From positions 111,573 through 175,572 of the forward strand of contig CAJUCD010000001.1 of the NCBI GenBank assembly GCA_910585045.1: a stretch of DNA of 64,000 bases. Direction: 5' to 3'. Made by a program: the position numbers and the translations under genes. This document shows positions 4,966 to 53,248 of the stretch, one piece after another. The notes below the pieces were generated by a model that made no database searches, was not told where the DNA came from, and saw nothing but the letters and a program-made list of their open reading frames with translations. Every line of letters starts with the position of its first letter. Within the stretch, counting starts at the first letter, position 1. This DNA comes from an uncultured Bacilli bacterium. Lineage in GTDB: Bacteria > Bacillota_I > Bacilli_A > RF39 > UBA660.

Positions 4966-5778
4966 TTATTTTATCAGAATTATAACGATGTAACTTATGA
5001 TACTGGTACTCACATTACTAAGAAAATTGACACAATCATTGTTAATAAATTTGAAGCCTTTATAATATTTAGTTTTTATTTGACAATGTTCTTCACGTTC
5101 AGTTATTTGAAGGCATTTTTGACACTTATATTTTACTTGGATGGTAGAGCCTAAAACACTATCAACAATGGTACCTAGAAAACCACTAAGTAATATTGCT
5201 AGAAAAGAGGAAAACTGATGATAAAAAATATAAAATATACTACTAATTATTAAAGAACCTATCAAAGATAAGCATATACCTAAAAGGCTAATATTTCCTG
5301 ATAAACCTTTTATGCTTTTTTTAAATGTTAATATATTAATTGGCGGGCGTTTTGATAACACCCCTATATCAGATGCTAGAGAATCAGAAAGAGATTCAGC
5401 CATAATGCTAGCATAAATTATTAAATAGATGAAGTTATTAGTAAATCCATATATTATAATAAAAAGTGTTCCTAATCCCACATTTGCTAAAATTTGATAT
5501 ATATCTTTTTTGTGAGGTTTTTTAATTATATCATGATTAATTTCAATTTTTTTGATTGCTCCTATTTTATTACCTATTAAAGTGCCTAAAAAAACTAAAA
5601 CTAAAATCAAATAAGAAATAATTCCTCCAAAATAAGTAATTAAGCAAGCAAATATAAAAGCACATAATAAAGCACTGGTAGTAAGAGCCTTTTTGATATA
5701 AGCTAAAATGGTTAACAGTAAACTTAAAGTGATACTTAATATTATATTCATGTTACTCCTTATATGGCTAAAAGCCAT
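4966..5778 (-). CDS. DUF92/TMEM19 (VTE6-like) polytopic membrane protein with C-terminal Cys/His cluster
   Basis: Multi-TM protein. The DSVLGSTIQ motif is followed by CQKC...HC...C. It overlaps the upstream kinase-like gene by 19 nt. Confidence 0.55.
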   Translation of the reverse strand: MAFSHIRSNMNIILSITLSLLLTILAYIKKALTTSALLCAFIFACLITYFGGIISYLILVLVFLGTLIGNKIGAIKKIEINHDIIKKPHKKDIYQILANVGLGTLFIIIYGFTNNFIYLIIYASIMAESLSDSLASDIGVLSKRPPINILTFKKSIKGLSGNISLLGICLSLIGSLIISSIFYIFYHQFSSFLAILLSGFLGTIVDSVLGSTIQVKYKCQKCLQITEREEHCQIKTKYYKGFKFINNDCVNFLSNVSTSIISYIVIILIK

Positions 5779-6410
5779 GATATGAGTGCTAAACCTAATG
5801 GTAAAGTGAGATTATCAAAGCCTTTTACGCCTATTAATTCTAAAATACTTGCACTAATACTTATTATTAATATTTCATAGATGCTATAAGATAGATGATA
5901 ATTTTTAGTGATTATTAATGTTAATAAAAATGTAATTATAATAATTGTTAATGAACCAAAATAAGTTTTAGTAGTGTTTTTAATTTTATATTGAGGAATT
6001 TTAGAGCCAATGAATGGAGCTATACCATCTCCCAAAACCATTGCTAAAATACCTATTCCATAAAATGGTAAAAAATCGTGGTTGAGTACAGTTATCATAC
6101 TTAAAATAGTAAAACTTATTGCATAATATATGGTCCCTTTAGATTCTTTGTCTGGGCGTTCCATAGATTTTAAAAAATTAGTTTTGTAAGAAATATAGTT
6201 TATGAAAATAAATGTTAAAGGTGGTATCATAAGATGATAAGTAAAACTAAAAAAATATATCATAATAAACCATGATAAACCAACCATTATATGAATAATT
6301 TTACGAGATATCTCATTTTTTAGTGAATATTTTCTTTTTATTAACTCTGTTATTATTATGACTAATGATATATAAGTATAAGTTAATATATACCCTATTA
6401 CTGTTCTCAT
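5760..6410 (-). CDS. CTP-dependent polyprenol/phytol/dolichol-kinase-like membrane protein (CdsA superfamily)
   Basis: Membrane protein of about six TM segments with a GDGIAPFIGSKIP motif resembling the cytidylyltransferase/dolichol kinase family. Confidence 0.5.
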   Translation of the reverse strand: MRTVIGYILTYTYISLVIIITELIKRKYSLKNEISRKIIHIMVGLSWFIMIYFFSFTYHLMIPPLTFIFINYISYKTNFLKSMERPDKESKGTIYYAISFTILSMITVLNHDFLPFYGIGILAMVLGDGIAPFIGSKIPQYKIKNTTKTYFGSLTIIIITFLLTLIITKNYHLSYSIYEILIISISASILELIGVKGFDNLTLPLGLALISWLLAI

Positions 6411-6451
6411 ATTTACCTCTTAATATATTATATCATATATTATTAATTTAA

Positions 6452-6482
6452 GAAAACCTCGAAAAAATATATTTTTCGAGGT
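6452..6482 (-). terminator. rho-independent terminator after rpsI
   Basis: Perfect stem CCTCGAAAAA / TTTTTCGAGG with a 6-nt loop and a T-run on the minus strand. Confidence 0.65.
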
Positions 6483-6499
6483 ATACATTGAACAAAATA

Positions 6500-6916
6500 T
6501 TATCTTTTTGAGAATTGTGGTGCACGACGAGCTTTTTTAAGTCCGTATTTTTTACGTTCTTTAACTCTTGCATCACGAGTTAAGAAACCATTAGCTTTTA
6601 AAATCTTACGATATGAATCTTCTCTTGTTTGATCAGTATTAGCATCAAATTTAAGTAAAGCTCTTGCAATACCTAAACGAATAGCTCCTGCTTGACCAGA
6701 GTATCCGCCACCTTTTACAGTAACTTCGATATCAAAACGATTTTCATTGTCAGTAGCAGTTAATGGTTGTTTTAAATCCATTACAAGAATTTGGTTTGGA
6801 AAATATTCATTTACATCTGTTCCGTTTACAATAATATTTCCTGTTCCGCCTGTAATTCTTACTGATGCAGAACTTCTTTTACGACGACCTGTTGCAGTCC
6901 ATACTTGTTTAGCCAT
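6500..6916 (-). CDS. rpsI: 30S ribosomal protein S9
   Basis: [19 protein letters not shown] and the C-terminal [12 protein letters not shown]. Confidence 0.95.
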
Positions 6917-6927
6917 TAATTTACCTC

Positions 6928-7359
6928 CTAATCAATTTTAAGCTCTGTTGGTTTTTGAGCTTCATGTTTGTGATCAGCATTGCTGTATACAAATAATTTT
7001 TTACCCATTGCTCTTCCAAGAGGTCCATGAGGAAGCATACCTTTAACAGCTCTTTCAATCATTTCTTCTGGATATTTCTCAATCATTGTTTTTGCATTTC
7101 TTTCTCTTAATCCTCCTGGATAACCAGAGTGATTGTAATACATCTTATCTTCTAGTTTGTTTCCAGTTAAATTAACCTTTGATGCATTAATGATAATTAC
7201 ATAATCTCCACAATCTACATGAGGTGTATAAGTAACTTTATGTTTACCTCTTAAAATTGTAGCAGCTTTAGTAGCAATACGACCTAAAGTTTTACCTTCA
7301 GCATCAATTACATACCATTTACGTTCAATGTTTTCTTTTTTTTGCATGAATGTCTTCAT
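6928..7359 (-). CDS. rplM: 50S ribosomal protein L13
   Basis: Typical L13 sequence ([16 protein letters not shown]) and the rplM-rpsI operon arrangement. Confidence 0.95.
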
Positions 7360-7473
7360 AACACTTTATCCTTCCATTATCGTTTTCCCTACTTTTGCTT
7401 TCCCAGGGCTTGGTAGTTCCAACAAATAAAATGTACCATTTAAAATTATATGTAAATTATATGGTTTTGTCAA
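7360..7473 (-). promoter_or_regulatory. sigma-A promoter plus roughly 78-nt rplM leader (possible ribosomal-protein leader structure)
   Basis: On the minus strand, TTGACA (7468-7473), a 17-nt spacer, then TATAAT (7445-7450). The leader contains a CCCT...AGGG / CTAC...GTAG pairing. Confidence 0.5.
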
Positions 7474-7533
7474 ATAGAAAATGAGCTTTTTTCATATATT
7501 TACAATATTTTTTACGATTTTTAATTATAATTG

Positions 7534-8136
7534 TTATTTTTCGCCAGTAAATACTTTGATTACGCAAGAAAATTTATATAAAATATTATTGGAATGATTG
7601 ATTGCTATACTTTTTCCTAAGGCTTTTCCTCCTATAGTTAAAGCAGCAATAATACTTGTTATAATTAAACTAACATAAAATATATTGAAATTTAATTTAT
7701 TTGCTAATAATATAGCTATAGTTCCAGCGGCAGTACCAGATAATATTCCACAAATATCACCAATTACATCATTACAGAAACTTGATACTTTGGAGTTATT
7801 AGCGATTAGTTTTAAAGCTGTTTTTGCACCACTTACTTTTTTAGCAGCCATAGAATGAAATACTTTTTTATCAGCAACTGTAACAGAAATACCAACCATA
7901 TCAAAAACAATACCTAATACTATAAATATTAAGACTATTAAAATACTTAAAGTTAAATTGATGTCTTTTAAGGCTGATTCTGAAAAAATTGACATAATAA
8001 AAGTTATCATAAATGCTGTTAGGGTAATAGTTATAATCCATTTATAATCTGCTTTTAAATTAACATTTTTATTTTGTTTATTTGCTTTTTTATTATATTG
8101 TTCTTTATTTTTTTTATCTTTCATATTATCACACAA
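7534..8136 (-). CDS. small 4-TM membrane protein with lysine-rich N-terminus (possible OapA-like / stand-alone DUF21-like)
   Basis: About 200 aa. Basic N-terminal tail, four hydrophobic segments, and a loop AAKKVSGAKTALKLIANNSKVSSFCNDVIGDI reminiscent of the CNNM/DUF21 TM domain. It lies directly downstream of the large ncRNA candidate with no terminator between them. Confidence 0.55.
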   Translation of the reverse strand: MCDNMKDKKNKEQYNKKANKQNKNVNLKADYKWIITITLTAFMITFIMSIFSESALKDINLTLSILIVLIFIVLGIVFDMVGISVTVADKKVFHSMAAKKVSGAKTALKLIANNSKVSSFCNDVIGDICGILSGTAAGTIAILLANKLNFNIFYVSLIITSIIAALTIGGKALGKSIAINHSNNILYKFSCVIKVFTGEK

Positions 8137-8144
8137 TTAAAATA

Positions 8145-8714
8145 GAAATGGCGATTAAAATAATAAACTTTGCGACTTAAGGTCAGGTTGGATTTCCCTT
8201 ATTCTTACCTAGGCGTTACCACATAGGCCGTTCCCATTTAAAAGAATAAATAAGAAGTTACCTCTCTTATTACCTGATTGCCACTTAGTACACACTGCAA
8301 TCTTATTTTAATATGCACTCTAGGAGTTTTCCTCGACAATACCCCCATTACTAATGCTTTTTTGCAGATAGCGTTTCAAAAAGCAATACTCCTCTTAAAC
8401 ATGTACACGCCAAGATTCGCTGTCATTTATCCCCGATATCCACGCAAGCCAAGCTACGCTACTCATAACTTTCGCCAAAAGTAGGTTTAATCCTAGTTCG
8501 TAGAAAATTAAGTTTTCCACAAAGATAGGTCTCCACGATAAATTGGGACGGTTGCCATATGCCATTATGATCGCCCAAAAAATCTACATTTCCAGCACTC
8601 ACCCTAAACTGGGCGTAAAAAGCAAGCACCAGAAGCTTCACAGATGTGCTCTTTAACGGTCTTTTAAACCCGTCTTCGTAATATGTATTGACTAGAATAA
8701 TGTGCCATCTCGTT
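8145..8714 (-). ncRNA. large structured non-coding RNA candidate, about 570 nt (OLE-like?)
   Basis: A 640-bp ORF-poor gap in a tightly packed genome, visibly richer in G+C than its flanks, with its own promoter. Nested helices include 8355-8385, 8249-8271 and 8199-8206/8242-8249. It has neither the RNase P nor the tmRNA signature. Confidence 0.6.
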
Positions 8715-8721
8715 GTTATAG

Positions 8722-8750
8722 ATTATATCATATTTTATTTATTTTGCAAA
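8722..8750 (-). promoter_or_regulatory. sigma-A promoter with extended -10 for the ncRNA
   Basis: On the minus strand, TTGCAA, 16 nt, then TGATATAAT, located just after the truA stop. Confidence 0.45.
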
Positions 8751-8776
8751 TATGCATTAAAAATGCTTTACATAAG

Positions 8777-9502
8777 TTATTTGTATAACACTTTATTTAG
8801 ATATAGACCACTCGGTAAGGCTGTACTGAATTGTTTTGGCTTTTCTGGATTATCTAAAGCTTCTTTAATTTCTTCGATAGTATTTTTTTTAGTACTAACA
8901 TCAAGCATAGCTCCTACTAAATTACGGACCATGTAGCGGTAGAAACTTTGACCTACGAAACTTATTTCTAAAATATTTTTTTTGATACGAAAACTAATAT
9001 CATAAATGATGCAATCATAATTAGTGCGTGAACCAGAGACAAAATTTTTAAAATTATGGACACCAAGAAATAATTTTGCACATTTTTTCATGCTTTTAAT
9101 ATCAATATTATAGTTTGGTTGTAAAGTGTAGTCTTCAAGAAATGGGTCAAATTCTCTAAGGTTTATTTTATAAATATATTCCTTTTTTAAGACATTAAAT
9201 CGAGCATGAAAATTATTAGGTACAATTGATACTTTAGTAATATAAATGTATGGTTTTACTAAACTATTTAAAGCTAATTTTAAATGTTCTTCATCAATGG
9301 TTATATCTAAACTAAAAGAAGCTTGCTGGTCATAAGCATGAACTCCTCGATCAGTTCTACCTGCACCTTTTATGATTACTTCTTTTTTATTAATGATGGT
9401 TAATGCTTCTTCTAATGTTTTTTGAACAGAGGGATTTTCATTTAATCTTTGAAAGCCATAAAACTTTGAACCATCATATTTCATACTAATTAAATAATGC
9501 AT
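8777..9502 (-). CDS. truA: tRNA pseudouridine(38-40) synthase TruA
   Basis: Catalytic motif GAGRTDRGVHA, 241 aa. Confidence 0.9.
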   Translation of the reverse strand: MHYLISMKYDGSKFYGFQRLNENPSVQKTLEEALTIINKKEVIIKGAGRTDRGVHAYDQQASFSLDITIDEEHLKLALNSLVKPYIYITKVSIVPNNFHARFNVLKKEYIYKINLREFDPFLEDYTLQPNYNIDIKSMKKCAKLFLGVHNFKNFVSGSRTNYDCIIYDISFRIKKNILEISFVGQSFYRYMVRNLVGAMLDVSTKKNTIEEIKEALDNPEKPKQFSTALPSGLYLNKVLYK

Positions 9503-9503: not shown

Positions 9504-10121
9504 TTATTCTCCTTTTAAGCGGTAAATAGCTTTTAATAAATCTAAAACATTTTTATAATCTGCAATTTTAATATTACGTTCACGCATCATATTTATAAAC
9601 TTTGTAATTTCAGGTTTATTAGCGATATTTGATAAATTAAAATATTCTTCTTTTGAATAATTGTTAATAACTCCATTTTTATCAACATTAATAATTTCAT
9701 CAGCAATATCCCATAAAAAAGTTATATCATTAGTTAATATTAGAATTGTTTTATGATATTCTTGGGATAGTTTACGGAATAAACGCTTAAAATTCTCTTT
9801 TTCTTTATAATTTAAACCTTTTTCGAAATAGTCTAAAATTATATAATCTTTATTTTCGATAAGAGCTCTCGCAAGCATGATTCTTTTTATTTCTGATTCA
9901 GATAAGTCCTCTGACTTTTTAGTTAAATATGATTCATCTAAAAATACCATTTTTAAAGAAGCAAGTGATTTAGGACTATTTAAAAACGTTTCTGTAGTTC
10001 CAGGAAATCGATACTCTGTTATAATTCGATAATTATCATTATTAGTGGTTACATTAATGTTACCAGTTAAACCATATATTTTTTCCGTTGGTTTAGTATT
10101 TAATAAAATTGCTACTTCCAT
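9504..10121 (-). CDS. EcfA-like ABC ATPase homologue with degenerate catalytic motifs
   Basis: The signature LSGGQ is replaced by LSESE, Walker B by ILDYFE, and the H-loop by LTND. There is no Walker A. The C-terminal PEITKFINMMRERNI resembles the EcfA tail. The gene sits in the ecfA position upstream of truA. Confidence 0.6.
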   Translation of the reverse strand: MEVAILLNTKPTEKIYGLTGNINVTTNNDNYRIITEYRFPGTTETFLNSPKSLASLKMVFLDESYLTKKSEDLSESEIKRIMLARALIENKDYIILDYFEKGLNYKEKENFKRLFRKLSQEYHKTILILTNDITFLWDIADEIINVDKNGVINNYSKEEYFNLSNIANKPEITKFINMMRERNIKIADYKNVLDLLKAIYRLKGE

Positions 10122-10795
10122 AATTCTTCAACCAGACTTTCATTATCAAAAAATAATTTTGAGACAACATTGTAATACTTAAGACCACTAGATAACTCTA
10201 CAATAAAAGGAAGATTAAAGCCTAGTTTTTTAATGAGTGTTTCTTCTTTTAAAACAATTTTAGTTTCCCCTTCTATTACAATTTCATTGTTATAAATAAT
10301 TATTAAAAAAGGGAGTAATAATGTTTCTTCAGTTTCGCTTGTATAGTTAATAATTCTTTTATTTTGTCTTCTTAAAAATTCTATTATTTTATTTTGAAAT
10401 TCTTTTGATACATATGTAAACATATTCATAAATGCTATTATTTTTTTAGTGCTAAATATACTACTTATTATAATAATTTTATATTCATCTTCTTTGGTAA
10501 AAGTTGTTTTGCTTAATAAGTATTCACAGTCAAAAAAATTTAAAATATCTTGTGGAATGTCTCTAATGTTAAAATTACTCACTTTATATATTACAGTACA
10601 GCCTTGGTTTAAAAGCTCAATAGTATCTTTTGTATAATTATAATTAGATGGTATTAAAATAGTTGTATCTATATCAAAGATAGTTTTTCCATTTATGCTA
10701 AGTATTTTTTCCATTGTATCACCACTTATTAATAATAATAGCAGAGTTTTTGTTTTTTTGAAAGATAAAATTAGGACACTTTTTAAAGTGTCCAA
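10112..10795 (-). CDS. second EcfA-like degenerate ABC ATPase homologue
   Basis: No Walker A or signature motif, but an EcfA-type C-terminus (LGFNLPFIVELSSGLKYY). It overlaps the downstream paralogue by 10 nt. The likely start is MEKILSING at 10712. Confidence 0.5.
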   Translation of the reverse strand: MDTLKSVLILSFKKTKTLLLLLISGDTMEKILSINGKTIFDIDTTILIPSNYNYTKDTIELLNQGCTVIYKVSNFNIRDIPQDILNFFDCEYLLSKTTFTKEDEYKIIIISSIFSTKKIIAFMNMFTYVSKEFQNKIIEFLRRQNKRIINYTSETEETLLLPFLIIIYNNEIVIEGETKIVLKEETLIKKLGFNLPFIVELSSGLKYYNVVSKLFFDNESLVEELWK

Positions 10796-15473: not shown

Positions 15474-17012
15474 TTATTTGCTTTCAATTCGTGTAAATAA
15501 GATTTCTGGTTTATTTAAAATATTATTTGTTTGTAAAGCTCCAAATTTAGTAATACTATTATAATCTGTGATAGTTGTATTTAGTTGCTTAAAAATGTTT
15601 TCACATGTTGTAGGGATAAAAGGACTTAGTAATATAGTACAGATTCTAATTGATTCTAATAAATTATATAGTACTGTAGCAAGGCGCTCTTTTTTTGATT
15701 TATCTTTAGCTAAAGACCAAGGTGTAGTTTCATCAATATATTTATTGCACTTTCTTAATACTTCCATTATTTCTTCAATAGCTTCGCCTACTTTTAATTC
15801 ATTCATTTTTTCATCAACAATATCTTTAAGGGCTAAAACACTACTTTTTAAATCATTATCTATGTTATCAGAAATATTAGGATTTAAAACTATACCATCA
15901 AAGTACTTGTGAGACATACTTATGGTTCTATTAACTAAATTACCTAAATTATTAGCTAAATCTGAGTTAGTACGGGAAATTAAGGCTTCTTCTGAAAAAT
16001 TACCATCACTACCAAATGGAACTTCTCTTAAAGCGTAATAGCGGACAGCATCTACACCATATGAATTGATGTATTCACGAGGGTCTTTATAATTCCCTAA
16101 ACTTTTAGATATTTTACCACCATCTATTTTTAGCCAACCATGACCAAAAACTTGCTTTGGAAGTGGTAAATTTAAGGCCATTAATAAACAAGGCCATATA
16201 ATAACATGAAAACGTACTATTTCCTTTCCTACCAAATGAAGGTCGGCAGGCCAAAACTTCTGATATAAAGAATTTTCACAATTTGGATAGCCAAGAGAAG
16301 TAATGTAGTTAGATAAGGCATCTACCCATACATATACTACATGATTAGTATCAAAATCTACAGGAACTCCCCATTTAAATGAAGTTCTAGACACACATAA
16401 GTCTTCTAATCCAGGATTTATAAAATTATTTAGCATTTCATTTTTACGAGATAAAGGCAAAATGAAATTAGGATTTTTTTCATAAAACTCTACTAATCTT
16501 TTTTGATATTTTGAAAGTTTAAAGAAATATGCTTCTTCGCTTACTTCTTTAACTGGGCGACCACAATCAGGACAGTTTCCTTCAATTAGTTGACTTTCAG
16601 TCCAGAATGATTCACATGGTATACAGTATAAACCTTTGTATTCTCCTTTATATATATCACCTTGGTCATATAATTGTTTAAATATCTTTTGAACAGCTTC
16701 TTCATGGTTTTTGTCAGTAGTTCTGATAAAGTAGTCATATGAAATGTTAAGAGAAGACCATAAATCTTTGGCATTTTCAATTATTTTATCTACATATTCT
16801 TTCGGAGTTACTCCTTTTTCAGCAGCTTTTTTCTCTATTTTTTCGCCATGTTCATCTGAACCAGTTTGAAAAAAAACCTCATAGCCAGTTAACCTTTTAT
16901 ATCTGGATATAGCATCAGCGATAATAGTTGTATAGCAATGTCCTATGTGAAATTCAGCACTAGGATAATATATAGGTGTTGTAATATAATATTTTTTGTT
17001 CATTTTATTCAC
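15474..17012 (-). CDS. metG: methionine--tRNA ligase (short form, no C-terminal tRNA-binding domain)
   Basis: HIGH motif (FHIGH), KISKS, and Zn knuckle CPDCG. Confidence 0.95.
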   Translation of the reverse strand: MNKMNKKYYITTPIYYPSAEFHIGHCYTTIIADAISRYKRLTGYEVFFQTGSDEHGEKIEKKAAEKGVTPKEYVDKIIENAKDLWSSLNISYDYFIRTTDKNHEEAVQKIFKQLYDQGDIYKGEYKGLYCIPCESFWTESQLIEGNCPDCGRPVKEVSEEAYFFKLSKYQKRLVEFYEKNPNFILPLSRKNEMLNNFINPGLEDLCVSRTSFKWGVPVDFDTNHVVYVWVDALSNYITSLGYPNCENSLYQKFWPADLHLVGKEIVRFHVIIWPCLLMALNLPLPKQVFGHGWLKIDGGKISKSLGNYKDPREYINSYGVDAVRYYALREVPFGSDGNFSEEALISRTNSDLANNLGNLVNRTISMSHKYFDGIVLNPNISDNIDNDLKSSVLALKDIVDEKMNELKVGEAIEEIMEVLRKCNKYIDETTPWSLAKDKSKKERLATVLYNLLESIRICTILLSPFIPTTCENIFKQLNTTITDYNSITKFGALQTNNILNKPEILFTRIESK

Positions 17013-17654: not shown

Positions 17655-17855
17655 AAAAACAAATAAAAACCATAAACTAAGGACGCTGTTATAAGCGCGG
17701 TACCACCTTAATTCATGATTTTTTCATGCACTTTAAGCTCTTAACGCGAGTTAAACGTTTAAACTCCAGAGTCATCTTCCATATCTTTTTATATTCGTTT
17801 GCATCAAACCACGAACTTTCTTAAATAAATTGATATGTACTCATTCCTTCAACAT
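17655..17855 (-). promoter_or_regulatory. T-box riboswitch leader, Met specifier (AUG)
   Basis: On the minus strand, the T-box sequence AAGGTGGTACCGCG, the specifier-loop context GGAAGAUGACUCUGGAG, and a terminator helix followed by a U-run. It lies upstream of the HAD-metG operon. Confidence 0.85.
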
Positions 17856-17913
17856 TTAATTTCTTTTATTATATTATATTTTTGAATAAAGTGCAAGTTG
17901 CAAATTTTTAACA

Positions 17914-27883: not shown

Positions 27884-27904
27884 AAAAATACCTCCATAAA
27901 AAAA

Positions 27905-27975
27905 GTGCACACAAATAGGGATTGATGTGGCTGCTACTTTCCAGTCCTGACCAAGTTACAATATATTTGTTGCAC
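27905..27975 (-). ncRNA. ffs: minimal signal recognition particle RNA (small SRP / 4.5S-like)
   Basis: The minus strand reads GGTCAGGACTGGAAAGTAGCAGCC, the conserved domain IV with a GGAA tetraloop. The closing helix is GTGCAACAAATA / TATTTGTGTGCAC, followed by a U-run. It sits upstream of tadA-dnaX, the same neighbourhood as scr in Bacillus. Confidence 0.75.
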
Positions 27976-28015
27976 GTTATTAATTTATCATACTTTTAAT
28001 TTTTTTTCAAGTATA

Positions 28016-28031
28016 TGTTTCACGTGGAACA
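28016..28031. other. parS site 1 (TGTTTCACGTGGAACA)
   Basis: Reverse complement of the B. subtilis parS TGTTCCACGTGAAACA. Confidence 0.85.
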
Positions 28032-28103
28032 TATTTTTTACAATATTTATAAATTTCATATTATTTTTTTATGCAAATTTAATTTTCAAGACATTTAAAA
28101 CAA

Positions 28104-28119
28104 TGTTTCACGTGAAACA
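28104..28119. other. parS site 2 (TGTTTCACGTGAAACA, perfect palindrome)
   Basis: Matches the consensus TGTTNCACGTGAAACA. The palindrome extends to 22 bp. Confidence 0.85.
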
Positions 28120-28390
28120 TTGTTAATAACTCGAGATTTTTCAACATTTTTTAAACTTTTAAAGATGTTATATGTTGTACTTTTTAAAAGTTTGCAATTA
28201 ATTTATTTTAAAAGTTAAATTTGCCTATGTAAGCAATCAGTTTTATTCCTTTTAATTTAAAAATAGAAATTAAAGTATATTTTATAACGTTTTATATAAA
28301 ATTTTATTTTTTCATTTTAGAATATAATAATTTTAAATATATAACTTATCATATTTTTTTAGGTTAATTTAATAATATTTTTCACTACAA

Positions 28391-28406
28391 TGTTTCACGT
28401 GAAACA
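28391..28406. other. parS site 3
   Basis: Same 24-bp block as site 2. Confidence 0.85.
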
Positions 28407-28407
28407 T

Positions 28408-28416
28408 TGTGGATAA
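28408..28416 (-). other. perfect DnaA box (TTATCCACA on minus strand) abutting parS site 3
   Basis: TGTGGATAA on the plus strand, 1 bp after the parS palindrome. Confidence 0.5.
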
Positions 28417-28574
28417 TTTTAATTTAATTATTTATAATTATATTTTAATTACAAAGAAGGGTAGGTTATTAGACGTTTTAATATTAATCATTAGATATTA
28501 TGCAATAAGATTTTATTATTATTTTAAAAACTTCAGGATTCTTTACTTTTCGAATTAACTGCATAGCTGAAAAA

Positions 28575-28590
28575 TGTTTCACGTGAAACA
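28575..28590. other. parS site 4
   Basis: TGTTTCACGTGAAACA, a perfect palindrome. Confidence 0.85.
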
Positions 28591-28672
28591 TTTTCTAATT
28601 TTCCACCATTTTTATAGTTACTAACATTTTCTTCTATAAAAATTAATATAAATTTAGTTAAAAAAAATAATG

Positions 28673-36018: not shown

Positions 36019-37377
36019 CTACAATTTGGATTTTATCTCCTTTATTGTGTGCTCTAAATCATTATTGGTTAAGAGCTCTTTTTCAATTTTATCACAAGCA
36101 AATATGACAGTTGAATGATCACGACCACCAAATTCTAAGCCTATTCTTGGGAATGTTTCATCCGTTTCCATACGGCATAGATACATTGCTAATTGTCTTG
36201 GATGAGCGACTTTGTTGCTTCTTTTCTTGCCTTTTAAGTCATCAATAGTAATATTGTAATGGTCAGCGACAGCTTTTTGAATTTTAGTAATGTTATTGTT
36301 AGAATAGATGTTCTTATTAACAAATTCTTTTAAAGCTTCACAAGTGAATTCTAAATCTATTGATTTAGGAACTATAATAGCTGTATAGGCCATTAGACGA
36401 TTTACAGCTCCTTCTAGGAAACGGACATCATTTTGGCAGGCATTGGCTATATATTCAATACTTTCTTCTTTTATTAAGTTAGCAATGTTGGTATTTTCGA
36501 GTTTTTTTCGGATAATTCGACATCTTAAGTCGAAATCTGGGGGATAAATATCTACTGGTAAACCCCACATAAACCTTGAACGTAAACGTTCTTCAAGAAT
36601 TTTTAAATCGTCTGGAGAACGGTCGCTGCTGATAATTATCTGTTTATTAGATTGATGTAAGTAATTAAATGTGTTAAAAAATTCTTGTTGGGTTTTTTCA
36701 GCACCTACTAAGTATTGGATGTCATCAATTATTAAGACATCAACATTTCGGTATTTATTTTTAAATTCTGTTGCATATTCTATAGTGTTTTTAGCATTAT
36801 CAGGGTTAGCAATATTAGTGTATTCTGTCATAAATTCATCACAAGTACAATATAATACTTTTCGATTAGAATTTTCAGTAATGAAATTTCCTATAGCATG
36901 CATTAAGTGTGTTTTTCCTAAACCGCTTTTACCGTATATAAATAGAGGATTATGAATTCTTCCTGGAGCTTCTGCAACAGCCATAGCGGCTACTTTAGCT
37001 AAACGGTTAGTATCTCCTACTACGAAATTGTTAAAATTAAGATTAGGATTTAAATTAGTATTAAAGTTATTGTTTGTAACTTCATTGTTATCCACAGTAG
37101 GAGGTATACTTATTTGAGTTAGTTCTTCTTCTAAAATAAAATTAATATCATAGGATATATTAGTAATATGATATAAAGTTTTCTCTATTAATGAGTAGTA
37201 ATTATCTCCAAGCATTTTTTTGTGGATTTCCATGGGTACTTCAAAAGTTATTTTAGTATCTGTTATACTAACTATTTTTAAATCATTGAACCATGCATGG
37301 AATGATGCTGGATTAATTTCTTTATATATATTTTCTAGAAAGATTTTTAATAAATCTTCGTTCTCCAAAAACCTCAC
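36019..37377 (-). CDS. dnaA: chromosomal replication initiator protein DnaA
   Basis: Walker A GKSGLGKTH and the domain IV motif GGRDHSTV. Confidence 0.97.
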   Translation of the reverse strand: MRFLENEDLLKIFLENIYKEINPASFHAWFNDLKIVSITDTKITFEVPMEIHKKMLGDNYYSLIEKTLYHITNISYDINFILEEELTQISIPPTVDNNEVTNNNFNTNLNPNLNFNNFVVGDTNRLAKVAAMAVAEAPGRIHNPLFIYGKSGLGKTHLMHAIGNFITENSNRKVLYCTCDEFMTEYTNIANPDNAKNTIEYATEFKNKYRNVDVLIIDDIQYLVGAEKTQQEFFNTFNYLHQSNKQIIISSDRSPDDLKILEERLRSRFMWGLPVDIYPPDFDLRCRIIRKKLENTNIANLIKEESIEYIANACQNDVRFLEGAVNRLMAYTAIIVPKSIDLEFTCEALKEFVNKNIYSNNNITKIQKAVADHYNITIDDLKGKKRSNKVAHPRQLAMYLCRMETDETFPRIGLEFGGRDHSTVIFACDKIEKELLTNNDLEHTIKEIKSKL

Positions 37378-37920
37378 CCCGCTGTCTAGCCTTGTTTAAC
37401 AAGATAATTGTATCGCATTTTAGTTTTAATTTAAACCCTAAAATTAAAAATGTTTATTATTAACATGTTATAAACATCTTTTTGCCCTTATTCTACCTTA
37501 TAAAAAGATATTTATCAACACTATTCACAAAATTTTAATGGTCTGTATTAACAATTAACAAATGATTTTTTGACTTTAAATGTTGATATTGTTAATAATT
37601 TGTAAAAAATGATATTTTTTGTCAGGAAATACCAGGTTCTGTTGGTAAGAATGATTTGTTAATAACTTAGCATTTATAAACATTTTATTGGATTTTAGCT
37701 GTTAATAAATAGTTTGACATTAATTGTTGTAAATATTTAATTGTTTATAGTTTGTTTATATTAAAAGTTATCCACATTATCCACAATTTAGTGTTTATAA
37801 CTTGATCTGTAAAGGCATATTGTTAAATTTAAAAATTCTATTTAATTAATCTTGAATAAAATATTTTTTAAATTAAGATTGTTAAAAAAAGTTTAAAAAG
37901 GAGAGTTTAGTATAAAAAAC
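37378..37920. other. oriC upstream region with DnaA-box cluster
   Basis: Two abutting perfect boxes TTATCCACA (37768-37776 and 37777-37785), TTATCAACA at 37512-37520, and several TGTTAATAA / TGTTTATAA degenerate boxes. The gene-strand switch occurs here. Confidence 0.7.
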
Positions 37921-37949
37921 TTGACTATCTTTCAATAAAATATTATAAT
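37921..37949 (+). promoter_or_regulatory. sigma-A promoter of rpmH
   Basis: TTGACT, 17 nt, TATAAT. Confidence 0.6.
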
Positions 37950-37984
37950 TAAACCACTTGAATTTTTTGAGGGAGGTGCAAGTT

Positions 37985-38107
37985 ATGAAGAGAACATATC
38001 AACCTAATAATCGTAAAAAAGCTAAGAAGCATGGATTTTTTGCTCGTAAGGAAACTAATATCTTAAAAAATAGACGTAAAAAAGGTCGTAAAGTTTTATG
38101 TAAGTAA
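37985..38107 (+). CDS. rpmH: 50S ribosomal protein L34 (40 aa)
   Basis: [22 protein letters not shown]...GRKVL with a GAGGGAGG RBS. Too short to appear in the ORF track. Confidence 0.9.
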
Positions 38108-38134
38108 CCACTATTTTTAAGTGGTGTTTTTTTT
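38107..38134 (+). terminator. weak terminator/attenuator between rpmH and rnpA
   Basis: 6-bp stem ACCACT / AGTGGT followed by T8. Confidence 0.35.
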
Positions 38135-38161
38135 CGGAATATTTATTGGATGTGAAAAAAT

Positions 38162-42483: not shown

Positions 42484-42578
42484 TTTAAAAATATTTTTTT
42501 AACAAATTAATATATTACCATTTACTCTTGTTCCACAAAATGTTACAATGTAGGTACGAGAGTAAAGCGGTGAAAAAT

Positions 42579-43166
42579 ATGAGCAATAAAGAAAAAGTAA
42601 TTGAATTTTTAAATAGTAATCATGGATATATTACTACTGCAGAATTTTTAACATTGGGTATGAGTAAACCTTTAATTCAAAAATTTTTAAATGAAGGATT
42701 AATTGAAAGAGTAAGTTATGGTTTATATATGGATAATAAAATATTAAAAGATGAATATTTTATTTTACAAAAGAAATATCCACTAGCAATATTTTCTTAT
42801 AATACTGCACTACATATTCTTAACTTAACAAATAGAACTCCAATGCAAATAGATATAACTGTTCCTAGAAATAAGAAAGTACGAGGAGATTATAATATTC
42901 ATAGAGTTGCAGAGAAATTTTACAATATTGGAATAATCGAAACCCTAAGTCCAAGTGGAAATCCAGTAAAAATATATAATGCCGAGAGGTGTATTTGTGA
43001 TATGTTAAGAACTGAAGGAGAATTTGATTTAGAACTTCAAAATAGAGTTTTAGATTATTATTTCCATAGTAAAGATAAAGATATTGATAAATTATTAGAA
43101 TATGCGAAGATCTTTAATATTTATGACAAGATTAATACAATCGTGGAGGTAATGATGAAATGGTAG
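42579..43166 (+). CDS. abiEi: type IV toxin-antitoxin system AbiEi-family antitoxin/transcriptional regulator
   Basis: N-terminal wHTH (HGYITTAEFLTLGMSKPLIQKFLNEGLIERVSYGLY). Overlaps the downstream NTase toxin gene by 7 nt. Confidence 0.75.
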   Translation: MSNKEKVIEFLNSNHGYITTAEFLTLGMSKPLIQKFLNEGLIERVSYGLYMDNKILKDEYFILQKKYPLAIFSYNTALHILNLTNRTPMQIDITVPRNKKVRGDYNIHRVAEKFYNIGIIETLSPSGNPVKIYNAERCICDMLRTEGEFDLELQNRVLDYYFHSKDKDIDKLLEYAKIFNIYDKINTIVEVMMKW

Positions 43167-44011
43167 AAGAAAAGATTAAATTAAAAGCAAAAGAACTCGA
43201 AGAAAAGTATAATTTAAATTACTACGAATCATTACAAAGATTTATGTTTGAAAGAATATTAGAAAGAATATCTGTTTCAGAATATCAAGATAACTTTATA
43301 TTAAAAGGGGGATTATTACTTGCTGCAATGTTTGGTGTAGAAAACAGAACAACAAAAGATATGGATACTACAATTATTGGTATAGATATTTCAAAGGATA
43401 AAATGGTAAATGTTTTAAATGAGATATTATCTATTGATTTAAATGATGAAGTTAAATTTGATATTGTAAGTATTACTGATATAAGAGAAGAAGATGACTA
43501 TGGTGGAAATAAATATCATATTACTGGTAGAGTAAATAGTACTAAAGTGAATTTAGAAATTGATATATCAACTGGTGACAAAGTAACACCAAAAGAATTG
43601 AAATTTAAATATCCTTTATTATTTGAAGATAGAAGTATTTTAATCAATAGCTATAATATTGAAACTATACTAGCTGAAAAAATAGAAACTGTTTTAAGAC
43701 GTGGAAAATATAATAGCAGAATGAAAGATTATTATGACATATATTTCTTTTTAACAAAGATAAAAAATGAAATTAATATAAATATATTAAAAGATGCAAT
43801 TAATAATACTTTTACTAAAAGAGATTCTTTTGAATACTTAAATGATTATCGTGAAATTATTAAATCAATCATTGATAGTGATAGAATAAAAACAAATTGG
43901 AAATATTATTCGAAGAAGAATAGTTATGCAAACAATCTAAAAGTAGATCAAATAATGATTTTACTAAACGATTTTATAAAAGAATTAAATTTAGAATTAG
44001 TAACAGTATAG
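43160..44011 (+). CDS. abiEii: AbiEii/AbiGii-family nucleotidyltransferase toxin
   Basis: DUF1814-like FILKGGLLLAAMFG...RTTKDMD NTase core, 283 aa. Confidence 0.75.
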   Translation: MVEEKIKLKAKELEEKYNLNYYESLQRFMFERILERISVSEYQDNFILKGGLLLAAMFGVENRTTKDMDTTIIGIDISKDKMVNVLNEILSIDLNDEVKFDIVSITDIREEDDYGGNKYHITGRVNSTKVNLEIDISTGDKVTPKELKFKYPLLFEDRSILINSYNIETILAEKIETVLRRGKYNSRMKDYYDIYFFLTKIKNEININILKDAINNTFTKRDSFEYLNDYREIIKSIIDSDRIKTNWKYYSKKNSYANNLKVDQIMILLNDFIKELNLELVTV

Positions 44012-44078
44012 GGATTGGGAAACTTCCCATAATATGCGAAAAGTGCTTGTGGGAGGAACTTTTCAATACTTGCTAAGC
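44011..44078 (-). repeat. right (inverted) copy of the structured repeat
   Basis: Hairpins GAAAAGT(13 nt)ACTTTTC and GGGAA-AC-TTCCC. There is a compensatory C-G to G-C change in stem 1 relative to the left copy. Confidence 0.6.
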
Positions 44079-44093
44079 AAAGAAGGTGAAGTA

Positions 44094-44910
44094 ATGAATG
44101 AGCAGTATTTAGATTCTGAAGTCAATGAATATATAGAAATAAAAAGTGATAAATCTGATTTAGAATCAAAATGGGAAATGGCAATTGGACTACAAAAAGT
44201 TGATAATTTAACACCTTCTAAAAATATGAAAGATTTAGTAAAATTAAACATTGAAAATGAAATATCAATCGATGAATTATAAAACAAACTGAAGAATTAC
44301 TATGATGATCTAAATGATAGCTATAATAGAGATGAGTACGAATGTGATTTTGTATCATTAAGAATCATGCAAATGATACAAAATAATATGTTCTTTTTAA
44401 CAATAGATTTTTATAAATATGTTCATTACTTTTTATTTAAAGATGTCTATAAGTTTGCCGGTAAATTTAGAGAAGTTAACATTTCAAAAGATGAAGAAAT
44501 ATTAAACGGAGATACAGTAGTATATTGCGATTATAATAGAATTGGAGATTATCTTATTTATGATTTTTCAGATAAAAGACAAGAAGATTATAAAGAGTTA
44601 AATGCATTAGATAAAATAATAAGTATATCTAATTTTACTTCTTGTATTTGGCAAGTACATCCTTTTATGGAAGGTAATACTCGAACAACAGCAATATTTA
44701 TAATTAAATATTTAAAAGATCTAGGTTATAATATTAATTATTCTTTGTTTAAAGACAATTCAAAATATTTTAGGAATGCATTAATTAGAAGCAACTAGTA
44801 ATGATAACTTAAGTATAAAAGAAGATAATAGTTATTTAATTAAGTTTTATGAGAATTTGTTATTAGGTAAAAATAATAATTTGAATATTGAATATATAAT
44901 GGTTAAATGA
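44094..44910 (+). pseudogene. Fic/DOC-family protein gene inactivated by one in-frame TAA and one frameshift
   Basis: Fic motif HPFMEGNTRT. The ORFs 44034-44282 and 44367-44798 are in the same frame, separated by the TAA at 44280. The C-terminal remainder (ATSNDNLS...FYENLL) continues in the +1 frame to 44910. Confidence 0.7.
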
Positions 44911-44979
44911 ATGATAAAATAATAAAAGGGATAATTGTCAAATAGTGTGTGTAGATACAAAAAAGTGATAATTATTGAA

Positions 44980-45012
44980 ATAGTCAATGTGAATAGCATT
45001 GGCTATTTTTTT
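44980..45012 (+). terminator. rho-independent terminator
   Basis: Stem ATAGTCAATG / CATTGGCTAT followed by T7. Confidence 0.6.
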
Positions 45013-45091
45013 GTGTAATTTTATAAAAACTCCTTTTTAAAATTTGGAAAATATGATAAAATAATAAAGTAAGGAAAGTAAGGAATTAAGT

Positions 45092-45319
45092 ATGAAAAAT
45101 GATAATGAATTGTTAGCAAGTGCTAAAATCACCTCTAAGGGGCAAATTACGGTTCCTAAAAATATAAGAGATATGTTAGAGGTAACTGATGGAGATTCAA
45201 TAGTTTTCTTTAAAGATCAAAATAGTAATATACATATAATAAGTAAAAAGAATTTGAAAGTCTCACCTGAAGATAATAAGCCGTCCATAATTGTACGAGG
45301 GGGTAAAAAAAATGGATAA
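45092..45319 (+). CDS. AbrB/MazE/SpoVT-family small DNA-binding protein
   Basis: SKGQITVPKNIRDMLEVTDGDSIVF. Overlaps the hsdM start by 8 nt. Confidence 0.7.
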   Translation: MKNDNELLASAKITSKGQITVPKNIRDMLEVTDGDSIVFFKDQNSNIHIISKKNLKVSPEDNKPSIIVRGGKKNG

Positions 45320-46883
45320 TATTAAAGAAAAAGAAAGAGAAGAATTACATAAAACTATATGGAAGATTGCTGAGGAACTTAGAGGTTCCGTTGATGGCTG
45401 GGATTTCAAACAATATGTTTTAGGCTTATTGTTTTATAGATTTATATCAGAAAATGTTGAAAATTACGCAAATAAAATTCAGCAAGAATATGGAATTAAA
45501 AACTTTGAATATAAAAACATTACAGATGCTCTTGCAGAAAATGGTAGAGAACAACTTATTGAAGAAAAAGGTTTTTATATAAGGCCCTCTGAATTATTCT
45601 GTAATGTAAGAAAAAATGCAAAAAACAACAAAGATTTAAATATTACTATAAATAAAATATTTAAAAATATAGAAAATTCTTCAAAAGGGCATAAATCAGA
45701 AAAAGATGTTAAGGGCTTATTTGATGATTTTAATGTAAATGATAATAAGTTAGGAGCAACAGTAGAAGAAAGGAATGCACATCTGGTTAAAATGCTTGAT
45801 GCAATAGGAAGTTTAAAATTAGGTGATTATAAAGAAAATACTATTGATGCTTTTGGAGATGCTTATGAATATTTAATGACTATGTATGCTTCAAGTGCTG
45901 GAAAATCTGGAGGAGAGTTTTTTACTCCTCAAGAAGTAGGCGAATTGCTCGCAAGAATAACTCTAATAGGTAAAACAGAAATAAATAAAGTGTATGACCC
46001 CGCCTGCGGTTCGGGATCGCTATTACTAAAATTCGCTAAGGTATTGGGAGAAGTTAATGTAAAAAAAGGGTACTATGGTCAAGAAATAAATTTAACTACT
46101 TATAATTTAGCAAGAATTAATATGTTTTTACATGATATTAACTATACTAAATTTGATATTGCACGAGGAGATACTTTAACTAATCCTAAACATTGGGATT
46201 ATGAACCTTTTGATGCAATTGTTTCTAATCCACCATATTCAACTAGATGGGCTGGGAAATCGGATCCTACACTAATTAATGATGAAAGATTTTCTCCCGC
46301 TGGAATCTTGGCTCCAGAGTCAAAGGCAGACCTTGCATTTACTATGCATATGCTTCATTGGCTTTCAGAACAAGGAACTGCTGCAATAGTACAATTTCCT
46401 GGAGTTTTATATAGGGGCGGGGCTGAGCAAAAAATCAGAAAATATATGGTAGATAATAATTTTGTAGATGCTGTTATACAATTGCCAAGTGATTTGTTTT
46501 TTGGTACCTCAATTTCAACATGTATTTTGGTTTTAAAGAAAAATAAAAATAATAATGATATTCTATTTATAGATGCTTCTAAAGAATTTGTTCGAAGTAC
46601 AAATAAAAATAAATTGTCAGATGAAAATATTAGTAATATTTTAAAGTTAATTGTTAATAGGCAAGAAATTGAAGGTAAATCGACAGTTGTATCAAATGAT
46701 ATAGTTTCAAATAGTTGTTACAATCTTTCAGTTAGTTCTTATTTAAAAATAATTGATAATGAACCCAAAATAGATATTGAAACACTTAATAATAATATAA
46801 AAAAAATTGTTGCAAAACAGCATCAGATTAGAGTAGAACTGGATCAAATAATATCTGAAATAGAAGGTAATTATTATGAGTAG
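45312..46883 (+). CDS. hsdM: type I restriction-modification system methyltransferase subunit
   Basis: Motif I DPACGSGSLL and motif IV VSNPPYS. The ATG at 45312 gives the typical MDNIKEKE...LWKIAEELRG start. Confidence 0.9.
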   Translation: MDNIKEKEREELHKTIWKIAEELRGSVDGWDFKQYVLGLLFYRFISENVENYANKIQQEYGIKNFEYKNITDALAENGREQLIEEKGFYIRPSELFCNVRKNAKNNKDLNITINKIFKNIENSSKGHKSEKDVKGLFDDFNVNDNKLGATVEERNAHLVKMLDAIGSLKLGDYKENTIDAFGDAYEYLMTMYASSAGKSGGEFFTPQEVGELLARITLIGKTEINKVYDPACGSGSLLLKFAKVLGEVNVKKGYYGQEINLTTYNLARINMFLHDINYTKFDIARGDTLTNPKHWDYEPFDAIVSNPPYSTRWAGKSDPTLINDERFSPAGILAPESKADLAFTMHMLHWLSEQGTAAIVQFPGVLYRGGAEQKIRKYMVDNNFVDAVIQLPSDLFFGTSISTCILVLKKNKNNNDILFIDASKEFVRSTNKNKLSDENISNILKLIVNRQEIEGKSTVVSNDIVSNSCYNLSVSSYLKIIDNEPKIDIETLNNNIKKIVAKQHQIRVELDQIISEIEGNYYE

Positions 46884-48072
46884 ATTAAATGAATTAATAG
46901 AAAAATTGTGTCCAAATGGAGTCAAGTTTAATAAATTAAGTGATTTATTAGATTATATACAACCAACAAAGTATATAGTTAAGAGTACAAAATACAGTGA
47001 TGAAAACGAAATACCAGTTCTAACTGCTGGGCAGACTTTTGTTTTAGGATACACTAATGAGATACAAGGCGTTTATAATGCTAGTAGAAATAATCCTGTA
47101 ATTATATTTGACGATTTTACTACATCGTTTAAATGGGTAGATTTTAAATTTAAAGTTAAATCTTCTGCAATGAAAATACTTGTTCCAAAATGTGACATTA
47201 ATATGAGATATATTTACTATGCTATGCAATGTATAAAATATAAACCTAAAGAGCATAGCAGGCAATGGATTGCCAATTTTTCGCAAAACAATATTCCAGT
47301 GCCTCCACTAGAAGTACAGCAAGAAATTGTACATATACTAGATAAATTTACAGAACTTACAGCAGAACTTACAGCAGAACTTACAATCAGGAAACAGCAA
47401 TATAAATATTTTAATGATAAAATATTTGATTTAAGGAATAATACTAATACAAAAAAAGTGAAAATGTCAGATATATTAATATCATTAAAGACTGGCTTAA
47501 ACCCAAGAAAGTTTTTTGAATTAAATACTTCTGATGCAAATGCATATTATGTTACTGTAAGAGAAATTGGAAATAGAAAAGTTGATTATTTGCAAGCCAA
47601 AGATAGAATTAATCAATATGCTTTAAATAGAATAAATGAACGGTCAAATTTAGAAATAAATGATGTTTTATTTAGTGGAACTGGGACTATAGGTCGAGTT
47701 TCTTTAGTAGAAGAGGAACCTAAAAATTGGAATGTTAAAGAGGGAGTTTATATTTTAAAACCAAATTTGCAGAGAGTGAACCCTGTTTACTTAATGTACC
47801 TTATGCGTTCAAATTATATGAAAGATATATATTCAAATTATATAGTTGGGTCTCCTGTTTCAAGTATTCCAATGAAGGATTTAAAAAAATTAGAATTTAA
47901 TATACCATCACTTGAAGAACAGGAAAGGATAATAAAAATATTAGATGTGTTTGACAAATTATGTAATGATATATCCGATGGGCTGCCTGCTGAAATAGAG
48001 ATGAGAAAAAAACAGCATGAATATTATAGAAATAAATTACTAAATTTTAGCGAGGTGTTACCTAATGAATAG
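46876..48072 (+). CDS. hsdS: type I R-M specificity subunit (type IC-like central TAEL repeat)
   Basis: Two target-recognition halves separated by the conserved helix region ILDKFTELTAELTAELTIRKQQY. Operon position. Confidence 0.85.
   Translation: MSRLNELIEKLCPNGVKFNKLSDLLDYIQPTKYIVKSTKYSDENEIPVLTAGQTFVLGYTNEIQGVYNASRNNPVIIFDDFTTSFKWVDFKFKVKSSAMKILVPKCDINMRYIYYAMQCIKYKPKEHSRQWIANFSQNNIPVPPLEVQQEIVHILDKFTELTAELTAELTIRKQQYKYFNDKIFDLRNNTNTKKVKMSDILISLKTGLNPRKFFELNTSDANAYYVTVREIGNRKVDYLQAKDRINQYALNRINERSNLEINDVLFSGTGTIGRVSLVEEEPKNWNVKEGVYILKPNLQRVNPVYLMYLMRSNYMKDIYSNYIVGSPVSSIPMKDLKKLEFNIPSLEEQERIIKILDVFDKLCNDISDGLPAEIEMRKKQHEYYRNKLLNFSEVLPNE
47350..47385 (+). repeat. 12-bp tandem repeat (ACAGCAGAACTT x2 plus a partial copy) encoding TAEL units in hsdS
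   Basis: The sequence reads acagaactt-acagcagaactt-acagcagaactt-aca. Confidence 0.85.
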
Positions 48073-49162: not shown

Positions 49163-49163
49163 G

Positions 49164-52214: not shown

Positions 52215-52503
52215 CATTTTATGATAGGATTATTATAGTCACTTGGGAATGTGACTAATGAAACATATAAACATATAGTGTCTTTTAATATAAAGACATA
52301 AATAGGTAAATAACCTATGATTTAAAGTTCAAAATATAAGAACTGGTTACATATTTATTCCAACAAACAAGTTTGGATAGTATTCCCTTGTTTTTGTAAT
52401 GGATTAATATGTCCAGTTCTTTTTACGTGTTCCTAAAAATACTGGTAAAGGAAGGAGGATAAAATGGAACTACTAGATTTGATAATCTTATATTGGAAAG
52501 ATA

Positions 52504-53016
52504 ATGAAAAAAGAAATAGAACCTTTTATAAATTTAGTAATACCAGAAGCAGTATTAGGAGATAATAGACTAACATTTTTAGAAAGAGTGTTATTAATTG
52601 AAATAGTGTCGCTATGTAAGAAAAATGGATATTGTTGGCCAACTAATAGATATTTTATGGGTAAGTTTGATTGCACAAAACCTACAATATCAAAAAGTAT
52701 AAGTAGTTTATCAAAATATAACTATATTGATATAGAAATCAATAATAGTGAAAAAAATAACGCAAAGAGAATAATTAGGTTATCTGAGGTATTAAAGAAA
52801 AGAATAACAAGTATTCAAGAAAATGCTAATGCTAGTATTCAAAATAATTTTAACCATTATAGTAAATATAAAAATAATAAAGAAGATATATTAAACGATA
52901 TTTATTCAGTTGATGATGAAGGTAATGAATATTGGCATGGAATAAAAATTGAATCAGAAAAAATGACAGATGAAGAAGTGAGAGAATTAGAAGATTTATT
53001 AAAAAAATTCAAGTAA
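52504..53016 (+). CDS. winged-helix DNA-binding protein of mobile-element type (replication/regulatory?)
   Basis: LTFLERVLLIEIVSLCKKNGYCWPTNRYFMGKFDCTKPTISKSISSL resembles phage/ICE HTH proteins. Confidence 0.5.
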   Translation: MKKEIEPFINLVIPEAVLGDNRLTFLERVLLIEIVSLCKKNGYCWPTNRYFMGKFDCTKPTISKSISSLSKYNYIDIEINNSEKNNAKRIIRLSEVLKKRITSIQENANASIQNNFNHYSKYKNNKEDILNDIYSVDDEGNEYWHGIKIESEKMTDEEVRELEDLLKKFK

Positions 53017-53245: not shown

Positions 53246-53248
53246 AAA

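Follow-up and report, generated by a model that had tools for sequence, protein, structure and literature searches.

Introduction

[quoted passage not shown] In size and conservation the class ranks near the top of the bacterial RNAs that are still enigmatic in their biochemical role, and recent structures suggest that the RNA may span the membrane. OLE dimers of Clostridium acetobutylicum and C. botulinum have been described by cryo-EM (PMC12286853, PMC12265935), with dimer contacts made by the A-rich loops of P4, by the kissing of P5.1 with P6.1 and by a P9 loop that is symmetrical (PMC12265935), and the stem of P3 and P3.1, whose published sum is typically 12 pairs, has been proposed to cross the membrane. 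In Halalkalibacterium halodurans, P13 together with P12.2 is the docking site of OapB, and the P13/P14.1 elements serve in OapB docking and in an RNA tertiary contact (PMC7936274). The partner protein OapA was characterized by Fernando and Breaker as CNNM-like, scoring just below true CNNM proteins, with a DxxxD motif, with four instead of three membrane helices and without the conserved CNNM proline, and the top structural match reported for H. halodurans OapA was 7M1U (PMC11332333). OLE variant 1 was assigned to TANB77 and variant 2 to RF39 (Fernando and Breaker 2024, PMC11332333), and both of these gut lineages were reported without OapB and OapC and often with trimmed OLE variants (PMC11332333).

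Here we analyzed a stretch of 64 kb (referred to as the window) from an uncultured gut Bacilli MAG lineage, for which a sequence-only reading had proposed an OLE RNA, its consensus unconfirmed by eye, followed by an OapA-like partner. We found that the segment is almost certainly an OLE RNA gene followed by oapA for its membrane-protein partner. The locus is a known RNA-protein system in a non-canonical position, it is detectable with Rfam, and its host group has already been reported with OLE.

Results

RNA family assignment of the truA-oapA spacer

The gap between the end of truA (8777) and the ATG of oapA (8124) was 652 bp with no inner ORF longer than 68 aa, in agreement with the roughly 640 bp without a credible ORF that had been noticed after truA. 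The G+C enrichment claimed for this spacer was also confirmed, with a GC content of 0.37-0.39 across 8150-8749, which was the peak of the 5-12 kb region, versus 0.19-0.35 in the other intervals there. The claim that most other spacers were under 100 bp was roughly true, but long gaps also existed at 27982-28672, an AT-rich spacer of 690 bp without ORF between the SRP RNA gene and gyrA, and at 37378-38161, a spacer of 784 bp between the divergent dnaA (36019-37377, minus) and rnpA (38162, plus).

In the Rfam 15 scan of the whole window, RF01071 (OLE) matched the minus strand of the spacer with 366.6 bits and an E value of 4e-104 (gathering threshold of 50 bits), and the match of 593 nt spanned model positions 1-616 of 616, untruncated, so that the proposed OLE identity was borne out over the whole segment (Table 1). 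Among the highly conserved (upper-case) positions of the OLE consensus, 209/249 (84%) were identical in the window RNA, and the sole consensus element missing was a small, optional and weakly conserved hairpin at model positions 424-435, which was missing from the whole clade as well. The cmsearch that had been suggested with the OLE, ROOL, GOLLD, HEARO and raiA models matched OLE and none of the other four. Indeed, ROOL, GOLLD, HEARO, raiA and the L13 leader were matched neither in the window at gathering thresholds nor in 7400-9000 at E<=1, where the permissive Rfam rescan (E<=1) returned, besides OLE, only two chance snoRNA matches of about 19 bits. Because this rescan held no other substantial match, we excluded ROOL, GOLLD, HEARO, raiA and the L13 leader. 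Assignment to an OLE variant class from the Rfam score of 366.6 bits was considered and rejected, since the published classes are bit-score bins of the authors' own model and are not transferable.

Table 1. Coordinates of the OLE RNA, its helices, the promoters and the neighboring genes in the window.
Feature	Position	Strand	Basis or remark
truA	8777..9502	minus	upstream neighbor; Pfam PseudoU_synth_1
ole promoter	8722..8749	minus	-35 TTGCAA 8749..8744, 16-nt spacer, extended -10 TG-A-TATAAT 8730..8722
OLE RNA, full RF01071 extent	8132..8724	minus	366.6 bits
OLE structured core, P1 5' strand to P1 3' strand	8711..8145	minus	567 nt
P1	8711..8704 with 8152..8145	minus	by eye, then counted
P2, CUAG palindromes	8699..8692 with 8323..8316	minus	by eye, then counted
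P3	8690..8685 with 8342..8337	minus	by eye, then counted
P3.1	8682..8678 with 8351..8347	minus	P3/P3.1 stem encloses domain 1
OLE domain 1	8355..8674	minus	Rfam alignment projection
P4, A-rich loop UUUAAAAG	8674..8655	minus	domain 1
P5/P5.1, loop GCCCA (CGCCCAG)	8635..8589	minus	domain 1
P6/P6.1, loop AAUGGCAU	8584..8537	minus	domain 1
P7	8529..8492	minus	domain 1
P8	8484..8459	minus	domain 1
P9 long arm, palindromic loop GUAC (GUGUACAU)	8450..8355	minus	domain 1
OLE domain 2 multi-stem junction, including P12.2	8153..8313	minus	Rfam projection and covariation
P13, one-nucleotide bulge (A), GUAA tetraloop	8270..8250	minus	domain 2
P14/P14.1, GUAA tetraloop	8249..8199	minus	domain 2
oapA	7534..8124	minus	196 aa from ATG 8124; 200 aa if TTG 8136
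rplM promoter, perfect sigma-70-type TTGACA-17-TATAAT	7445..7473	minus	downstream of oapA, before rplM-rpsI
rplM	6928..7359	minus	downstream of oapA
rpsI	6500..6916	minus	after rplM
First terminator-like hairpin	6482..6456	minus	terminator scan

Covariation and conservation of the fold

The Rfam alignment reproduced the window sequence exactly, and the Rfam structure was projected through the window row, which gave standard pairs in the window RNA at 133/155 consensus pairs; helix names were assigned from the loop descriptions in PMC12265935. The covariation alignment consisted of 71 complete, distinct OLE sequences from relatives. In these sequences 88.6% of the pair cells held standard pairs versus 39-46% when the 3' partner was slid by 1-3 columns, 115/155 pairs were changed on both sides (60-76 when slid), and the covariation score was 0.453 (0.09-0.12 when slid). 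None of 500 shuffles attained the observed covariation values. By these sliding and shuffling controls, the covariation in relatives for which the sequence-only reading had asked was present, with compensatory changes at the 115 pairs. P1, P2, P3 and P3.1 are unpaired in the Rfam model, and their pairs were picked out by eye in the window sequence and then counted in the 71 relatives: 88.3% of the cells were paired versus 39-48% when slid, with double changes in 18/27 pairs.

Three helices had been quoted from the letters of the spacer, two of which belong to the fold. AATAAGA/TCTTATT is P13, whose arms are joined by 5 consensus pairs, and TTATTCTT/AAGAATAA is P14 with 8 pairs, whereas both arms of TGCTTTTT/AAAAAGCA lie on the 3' side of P9 and share no consensus pair.

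Between congeners, identity was 88-91% for OLE, 85-89% for rplM/rpsI, 78-81% for oapA and 72-76% for truA, and OLE was 100% identical across five independent assemblies. Judged by these identities, OLE is under purifying selection, as conserved as rplM/rpsI and more conserved than oapA or truA. Three-base periodicity was looked for in the conservation of OLE and none was found.

Loops of dimerization and protein binding

All four of the dimer contact elements, namely the P4, P5.1, P6.1 and P9 loops, were present in the window OLE, and the P5.1 and P6.1 loops were conserved among relatives. The center of the P9 loop was a self-complementary tetramer in 71/71 relatives, and these tetramers were of five kinds (GUAC, GGCC, AGCU, UAUA, UGCA); as read from the alignment, this pattern of five palindromes is what a homodimeric kissing loop predicts. 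Moreover, two CUAG palindromes near P2 were almost invariant in the 71 relatives, and they would be consistent with the palindromes bound by OapA, which have been mapped in or close to P2 and P4a. A GNRA loop was present at P13 in 67/71 relatives and at P14.1 in 70/71. An expanded P7 tip of 20-35 nt was seen in a subset of the OLE sequences (L037, L041, L055, L058, L059, L063 and others), where it held a conserved CCUAUAC...UGA(U/C)GG (alignment columns ~230-265) that does not occur in the window OLE.

Promoter and transcription unit

The claimed minus-strand promoter with an extended -10 was found upstream of the RNA (Table 1), with transcription predicted to start at ~8715 and P1 beginning at 8711. 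In 69/71 relatives P2 was preceded by a -10 box (at least 5/6 matches) whose distance from it was fixed, in most cases at 18-23 nt, and in 56 of the relatives the box carried the TG extension. This conserved distance indicates that OLE is a primary transcript starting a few nucleotides before P1. The start of oapA was located 8 nt past the end of the OLE model with no terminator between, as had been stated earlier, and the scan of the minus strand detected no terminator-like hairpin until the one after rpsI. In addition, a perfect sigma-70-type promoter was located between oapA and rplM-rpsI.

The OapA protein

Database entries of the protein start with MKDKK, i.e., at ATG 8124, and TTG 8136 is also open. 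Four hydrophobic segments were located at about 30-48, 58-79, 120-141 and 146-164, and the AlphaFold model (36-sequence alignment, mean pLDDT 84.6) had long helices at 27-52, 57-83, 110-144 and 148-176, which was consistent with the claimed four-TM protein. The claimed lysine-rich tail turned out to be the N-terminal end, where 10 of 28 residues are K/R, and conserved lysines were also present in the loop 85-112; these residues are candidates for the positively charged cluster with which OapA would bind RNA. DVIGD (DxxxD) was located at residues 119-123 with both aspartates invariant in 36 homologues, the containing stretch SSFCNDV-GD-CGI was invariant across relatives, and the protein had no proline. 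The profile comparison that had been suggested gave 22 bits for CNNM (PF01595), under the cut-off of 28.4 and thus sub-threshold as published for OapA. Among the PDB matches of the model (Foldseek), the best four were the archaeal CNNM protein MtCorB (7M1T with two chains, and 7M1U) and the membrane domain of bacterial CorC (7CFF), with probabilities of 0.91-1.0 and weak E values of 0.015-1, and the lower matches were noise. Searches by sequence (single protein, profile) found no PDB relatives, and NCBIfam had no OapA model, its lone match being spurious (16 bits).

Judged by the published hallmarks (PMC11332333), the identity of the 196-aa protein as OapA is supported, and the suggestion of an OapA-like partner agreed with every hallmark that was tested (helices, DxxxD, proline, CNNM, fold). 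A search for OapA homologues gave 7410 at E<=0.001, the nearest of which came from gut metagenomes and NCBI MAGs named 'Bacilli bacterium'.

Relatives and genomic setting of the ole-oapA pair

The identical locus was present in GCA_026338125.1 and several ENA assemblies, and it recurred in numerous assemblies from gut metagenomes. When one genome per GTDB species was scanned, 80 loci with OapA relatives were obtained, with the labels uncultured Bacilli, Tenericutes, Mollicutes, Clostridium sp. CAG:710 and Candidatus Scybalousia, the last two of which we take to be members of the GTDB order RF39. Directly upstream of the oapA homologue, a full OLE of 337-389 bits was found in 11/12 loci with Rfam, and OLE was found in 75/80 loci with an nhmmer profile. 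The order truA-ole-oapA-rplM was restricted to the closest relatives (L006-L009 and L022, OapA about 77-86% identical), and ole-oapA had other, unrelated neighbors in more distant relatives; therefore, within this lineage the two genes behave as a module that can move. It had been cautioned that the truA and rplM flanks differ from the isoprenoid/recN context, which was correct, and these flanks are confined to the closest relatives. No isoprenoid/DNA-repair neighborhood was found at the window locus, this being a common association and not a defining requirement, and our literature search found no paper linking OLE RNA with truA, rplM or rpsI. OapB (a KOW/SBB protein), OapC (YbxF, of the L7Ae family) and bS21 were not found within the 64-kb window.

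In five related species (loci L043, L047, L066, L070 and L080) oapA was an orphan, an intact gene with DVIGD located at ~6000-6600 in the loci (2928-3494 in L066, 5519-6079 in L070), and no OLE was detected within 6 kb on either side of it (Rfam, E<=0.001). The spacer upstream of the orphan gene was <60 nt in L043, L047, L066 and L080, and in L070 the nearest same-strand ORF ended ~640 nt upstream. These species either have ole elsewhere in the genome or use OapA without OLE. In two further loci, L030 (4466-5884) and L079 (4719-6002), ole and oapA were split by an ORF of ~430-470 aa.

An exact 12-nt direct repeat, ATAACACTTTAT, flanks the pair at 7358-7369 (rplM start) and 8785-8796 (truA end). 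We considered it as an insertion scar and treated it as a coincidence, with about one such 12-mer expected by chance in 1.6 kb of AT-rich DNA and with the repeat absent at the same junctions in congeners L006 and L008.

Other features of the window

Directly after rpsI, two overlapping genes of multi-pass membrane proteins were located at 4966-6410, encoding a DUF92 protein (270 aa) and a 216-aa protein. Most assemblies of the species, though not every one, had these genes, and L002 had a prophage-like insert with an integrase instead. When an isoprenoid link was sought in these two genes, one was DUF92 and the 216-aa protein gave no family match at E<=5. Upstream of truA, a position usually occupied by ecfA1-ecfA2-ecfT in Bacilli, two overlapping ORFs of 205 and 227 aa were located at 9504-10795. 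They matched solely the C-terminal halves of ECF-transporter ATPase models, with scores far under the cut-offs, no ecfT followed them, and their identity to the counterparts conserved in congeners was 50-63%; they resemble remnants of EcfA that are degenerate or have been repurposed.

The window comprises the replication-origin region. One strand carries dnaA, dnaN, recF, gyrB and gyrA, and the opposite strand carries rnpA, yidC and the gene of a KH/R3H-domain protein (Jag/KhpB-like). The spacer between dnaA and rnpA, with two perfect DnaA boxes in tandem at 37768-37785, is the probable oriC. In the spacer before gyrA, which follows the SRP RNA (27896-27981, a standard Rfam match), palindromes TGTT(T/C)CACGTGAAACA were located at 28016, 28104, 28391 and 28575, where none is expected by chance, with no more of them in the 64 kb; from the B. 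subtilis consensus we take them to be parS (ParB-binding sites). A perfect DnaA box was also present at 28408-28416. A T-box leader (17676-17861, 114 bits), likewise a standard Rfam match, preceded the gene of a class I aminoacyl-tRNA synthetase (15474-17012). The region 42528-56200 was an island of defense and mobile elements, with an AbiEi/AbiEii toxin-antitoxin, a Fic protein, a MazE-like antitoxin, a type I restriction-modification system (hsdM, hsdS, an AAA_13 protein, hsdR), a DnaD-like HTH protein, a large serine recombinase and a KAP-family NTPase. In 57312-62573, no Pfam match at E<=0.001 was found for two large ORFs of 424 and 1289 aa.

Discussion

The case that had been named as refuting an RNA, a decayed protein-coding gene with GC-rich remnants, could account for the ORFs of 56-68 aa inside the spacer, but it was not upheld by the pattern of change: conservation has no period of three, compensatory changes occur at 115 base pairs, and an RNA covariance model matches with an E value of 4e-104. 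Since OLE is conserved above oapA and truA without such a period, a decayed protein gene was ruled out, and we assign this reading practically no probability. Another or undescribed large ornate RNA, of the ROOL, GOLLD, HEARO or raiA type and OLE-like in size and setting only, had been held out as an alternative and would suit the size of the segment; against it, the match extends across all 616 positions of the OLE model, no family scores better, the OLE-specific conserved loops are intact, and the permissive scan of 7400-9000 yielded nothing beyond OLE and the two chance snoRNA matches (~19 bits each), so that the chance of such an RNA is negligible.

The RNA might also be a relic in a reduced genome, transcribed only as a long 5' leader of oapA or read through into rplM-rpsI, with no functional particle. 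Such a reading would accord with RF39 and TANB77 being reported without OapB/OapC and often with a trimmed OLE (PMC11332333), and with the five sister species that have oapA and no OLE nearby. We consider it very unlikely, because the RNA has its full length and every stem, shows 88-91% identity between congeners and 100% in five independent assemblies, and covaries, with the dimerization loops kept through compensatory changes of the palindrome.

Under the preferred reading, an OLE RNA gene with its oapA, we propose the following by analogy with described OLE systems. An RNA of ~570 nt would be transcribed from ~8715 together with oapA, as for H. halodurans and Clostridium OLE (PMC12265935, PMC11332333). 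The RNA would fold as two domains linked by the P3/P3.1 stem, and it may dimerize through the A-rich P4 loops, through the loops of P5.1 and P6.1, which are complementary, and through the palindrome of the P9 loop. A dimer of OapA, a CNNM-like putative divalent-cation transporter, would anchor the RNA at the membrane, and the particle might aid tolerance of stresses, among them alcohol, cold, excess Mg2+ and growth on poor carbon sources (PMC12265935, PMC10898510). Further, a self-promoted ole-oapA cassette may have landed between truA and the rplM-rpsI operon in this lineage. That ole-oapA is a free-standing, self-promoted cassette which relocates in genomes and is placed here upstream of rplM-rpsI with possible read-through is a tentative idea that we hold to be rather improbable.

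The locus leaves the picture of OLE unchanged and is a standard member of the class. It adds a clean example of a private promoter together with 71 covarying relatives and five P9 kissing-loop palindromes, and it hints that ole-oapA moves as a unit and that oapA occurs at times without a nearby ole. If the cassette reading were true, there would be two possible natural experiments: a full OLE with the OapB-docking P13 in a group reported without OapB/OapC, and the five sister species with an intact oapA and no OLE nearby. They could show which of the OLE features function in the absence of accessory proteins and whether OapA works without the RNA.

Compared with the OLE RNA of H. halodurans, the genetic model, the window RNA has a similar size (~600 nt) and shares the conserved nucleotides, the stems P1-P15, the bulge and GNRA loop of P13, and the conserved UGAA-containing joining region beside P5, a k-turn site; oapA is immediately downstream in both, and both hosts are Bacillota. 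It differs in having its own promoter and truA/rplM flanks instead of a long polycistronic cluster of isoprenoid, DNA-repair and other genes, and in missing the hairpin at model positions 424-435; in P9 the loop reads GUAC here versus GGCC in the OLE consensus, and P7 is somewhat shorter than the consensus. The elements of the Clostridium OLE dimers, namely the A-rich P4, P5.1 GCCCA, P6.1 UGGC and the palindromic P9, are shared by the window RNA at the level of sequence, and P3 and P3.1 likewise form 11 pairs with an internal loop. Like the hosts of variants 1 and 2, the host here is an uncultured gut bacterium of low GC content that is known through metagenome assemblies, but the window OLE has retained P7 and P8, both absent from variant 2, as well as the P13 loop, which is often missing from variant 1. 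OapA resembles the CNNM Mg2+ transporters MpfA, CorB and CorC in its transmembrane fold, judged by the matches of the model and the weak Pfam CNNM score, and differs from them in its sub-cut-off CNNM match, in lacking the conserved proline and the CBS and CorC domains, and in having DxxxD and four instead of three membrane helices.
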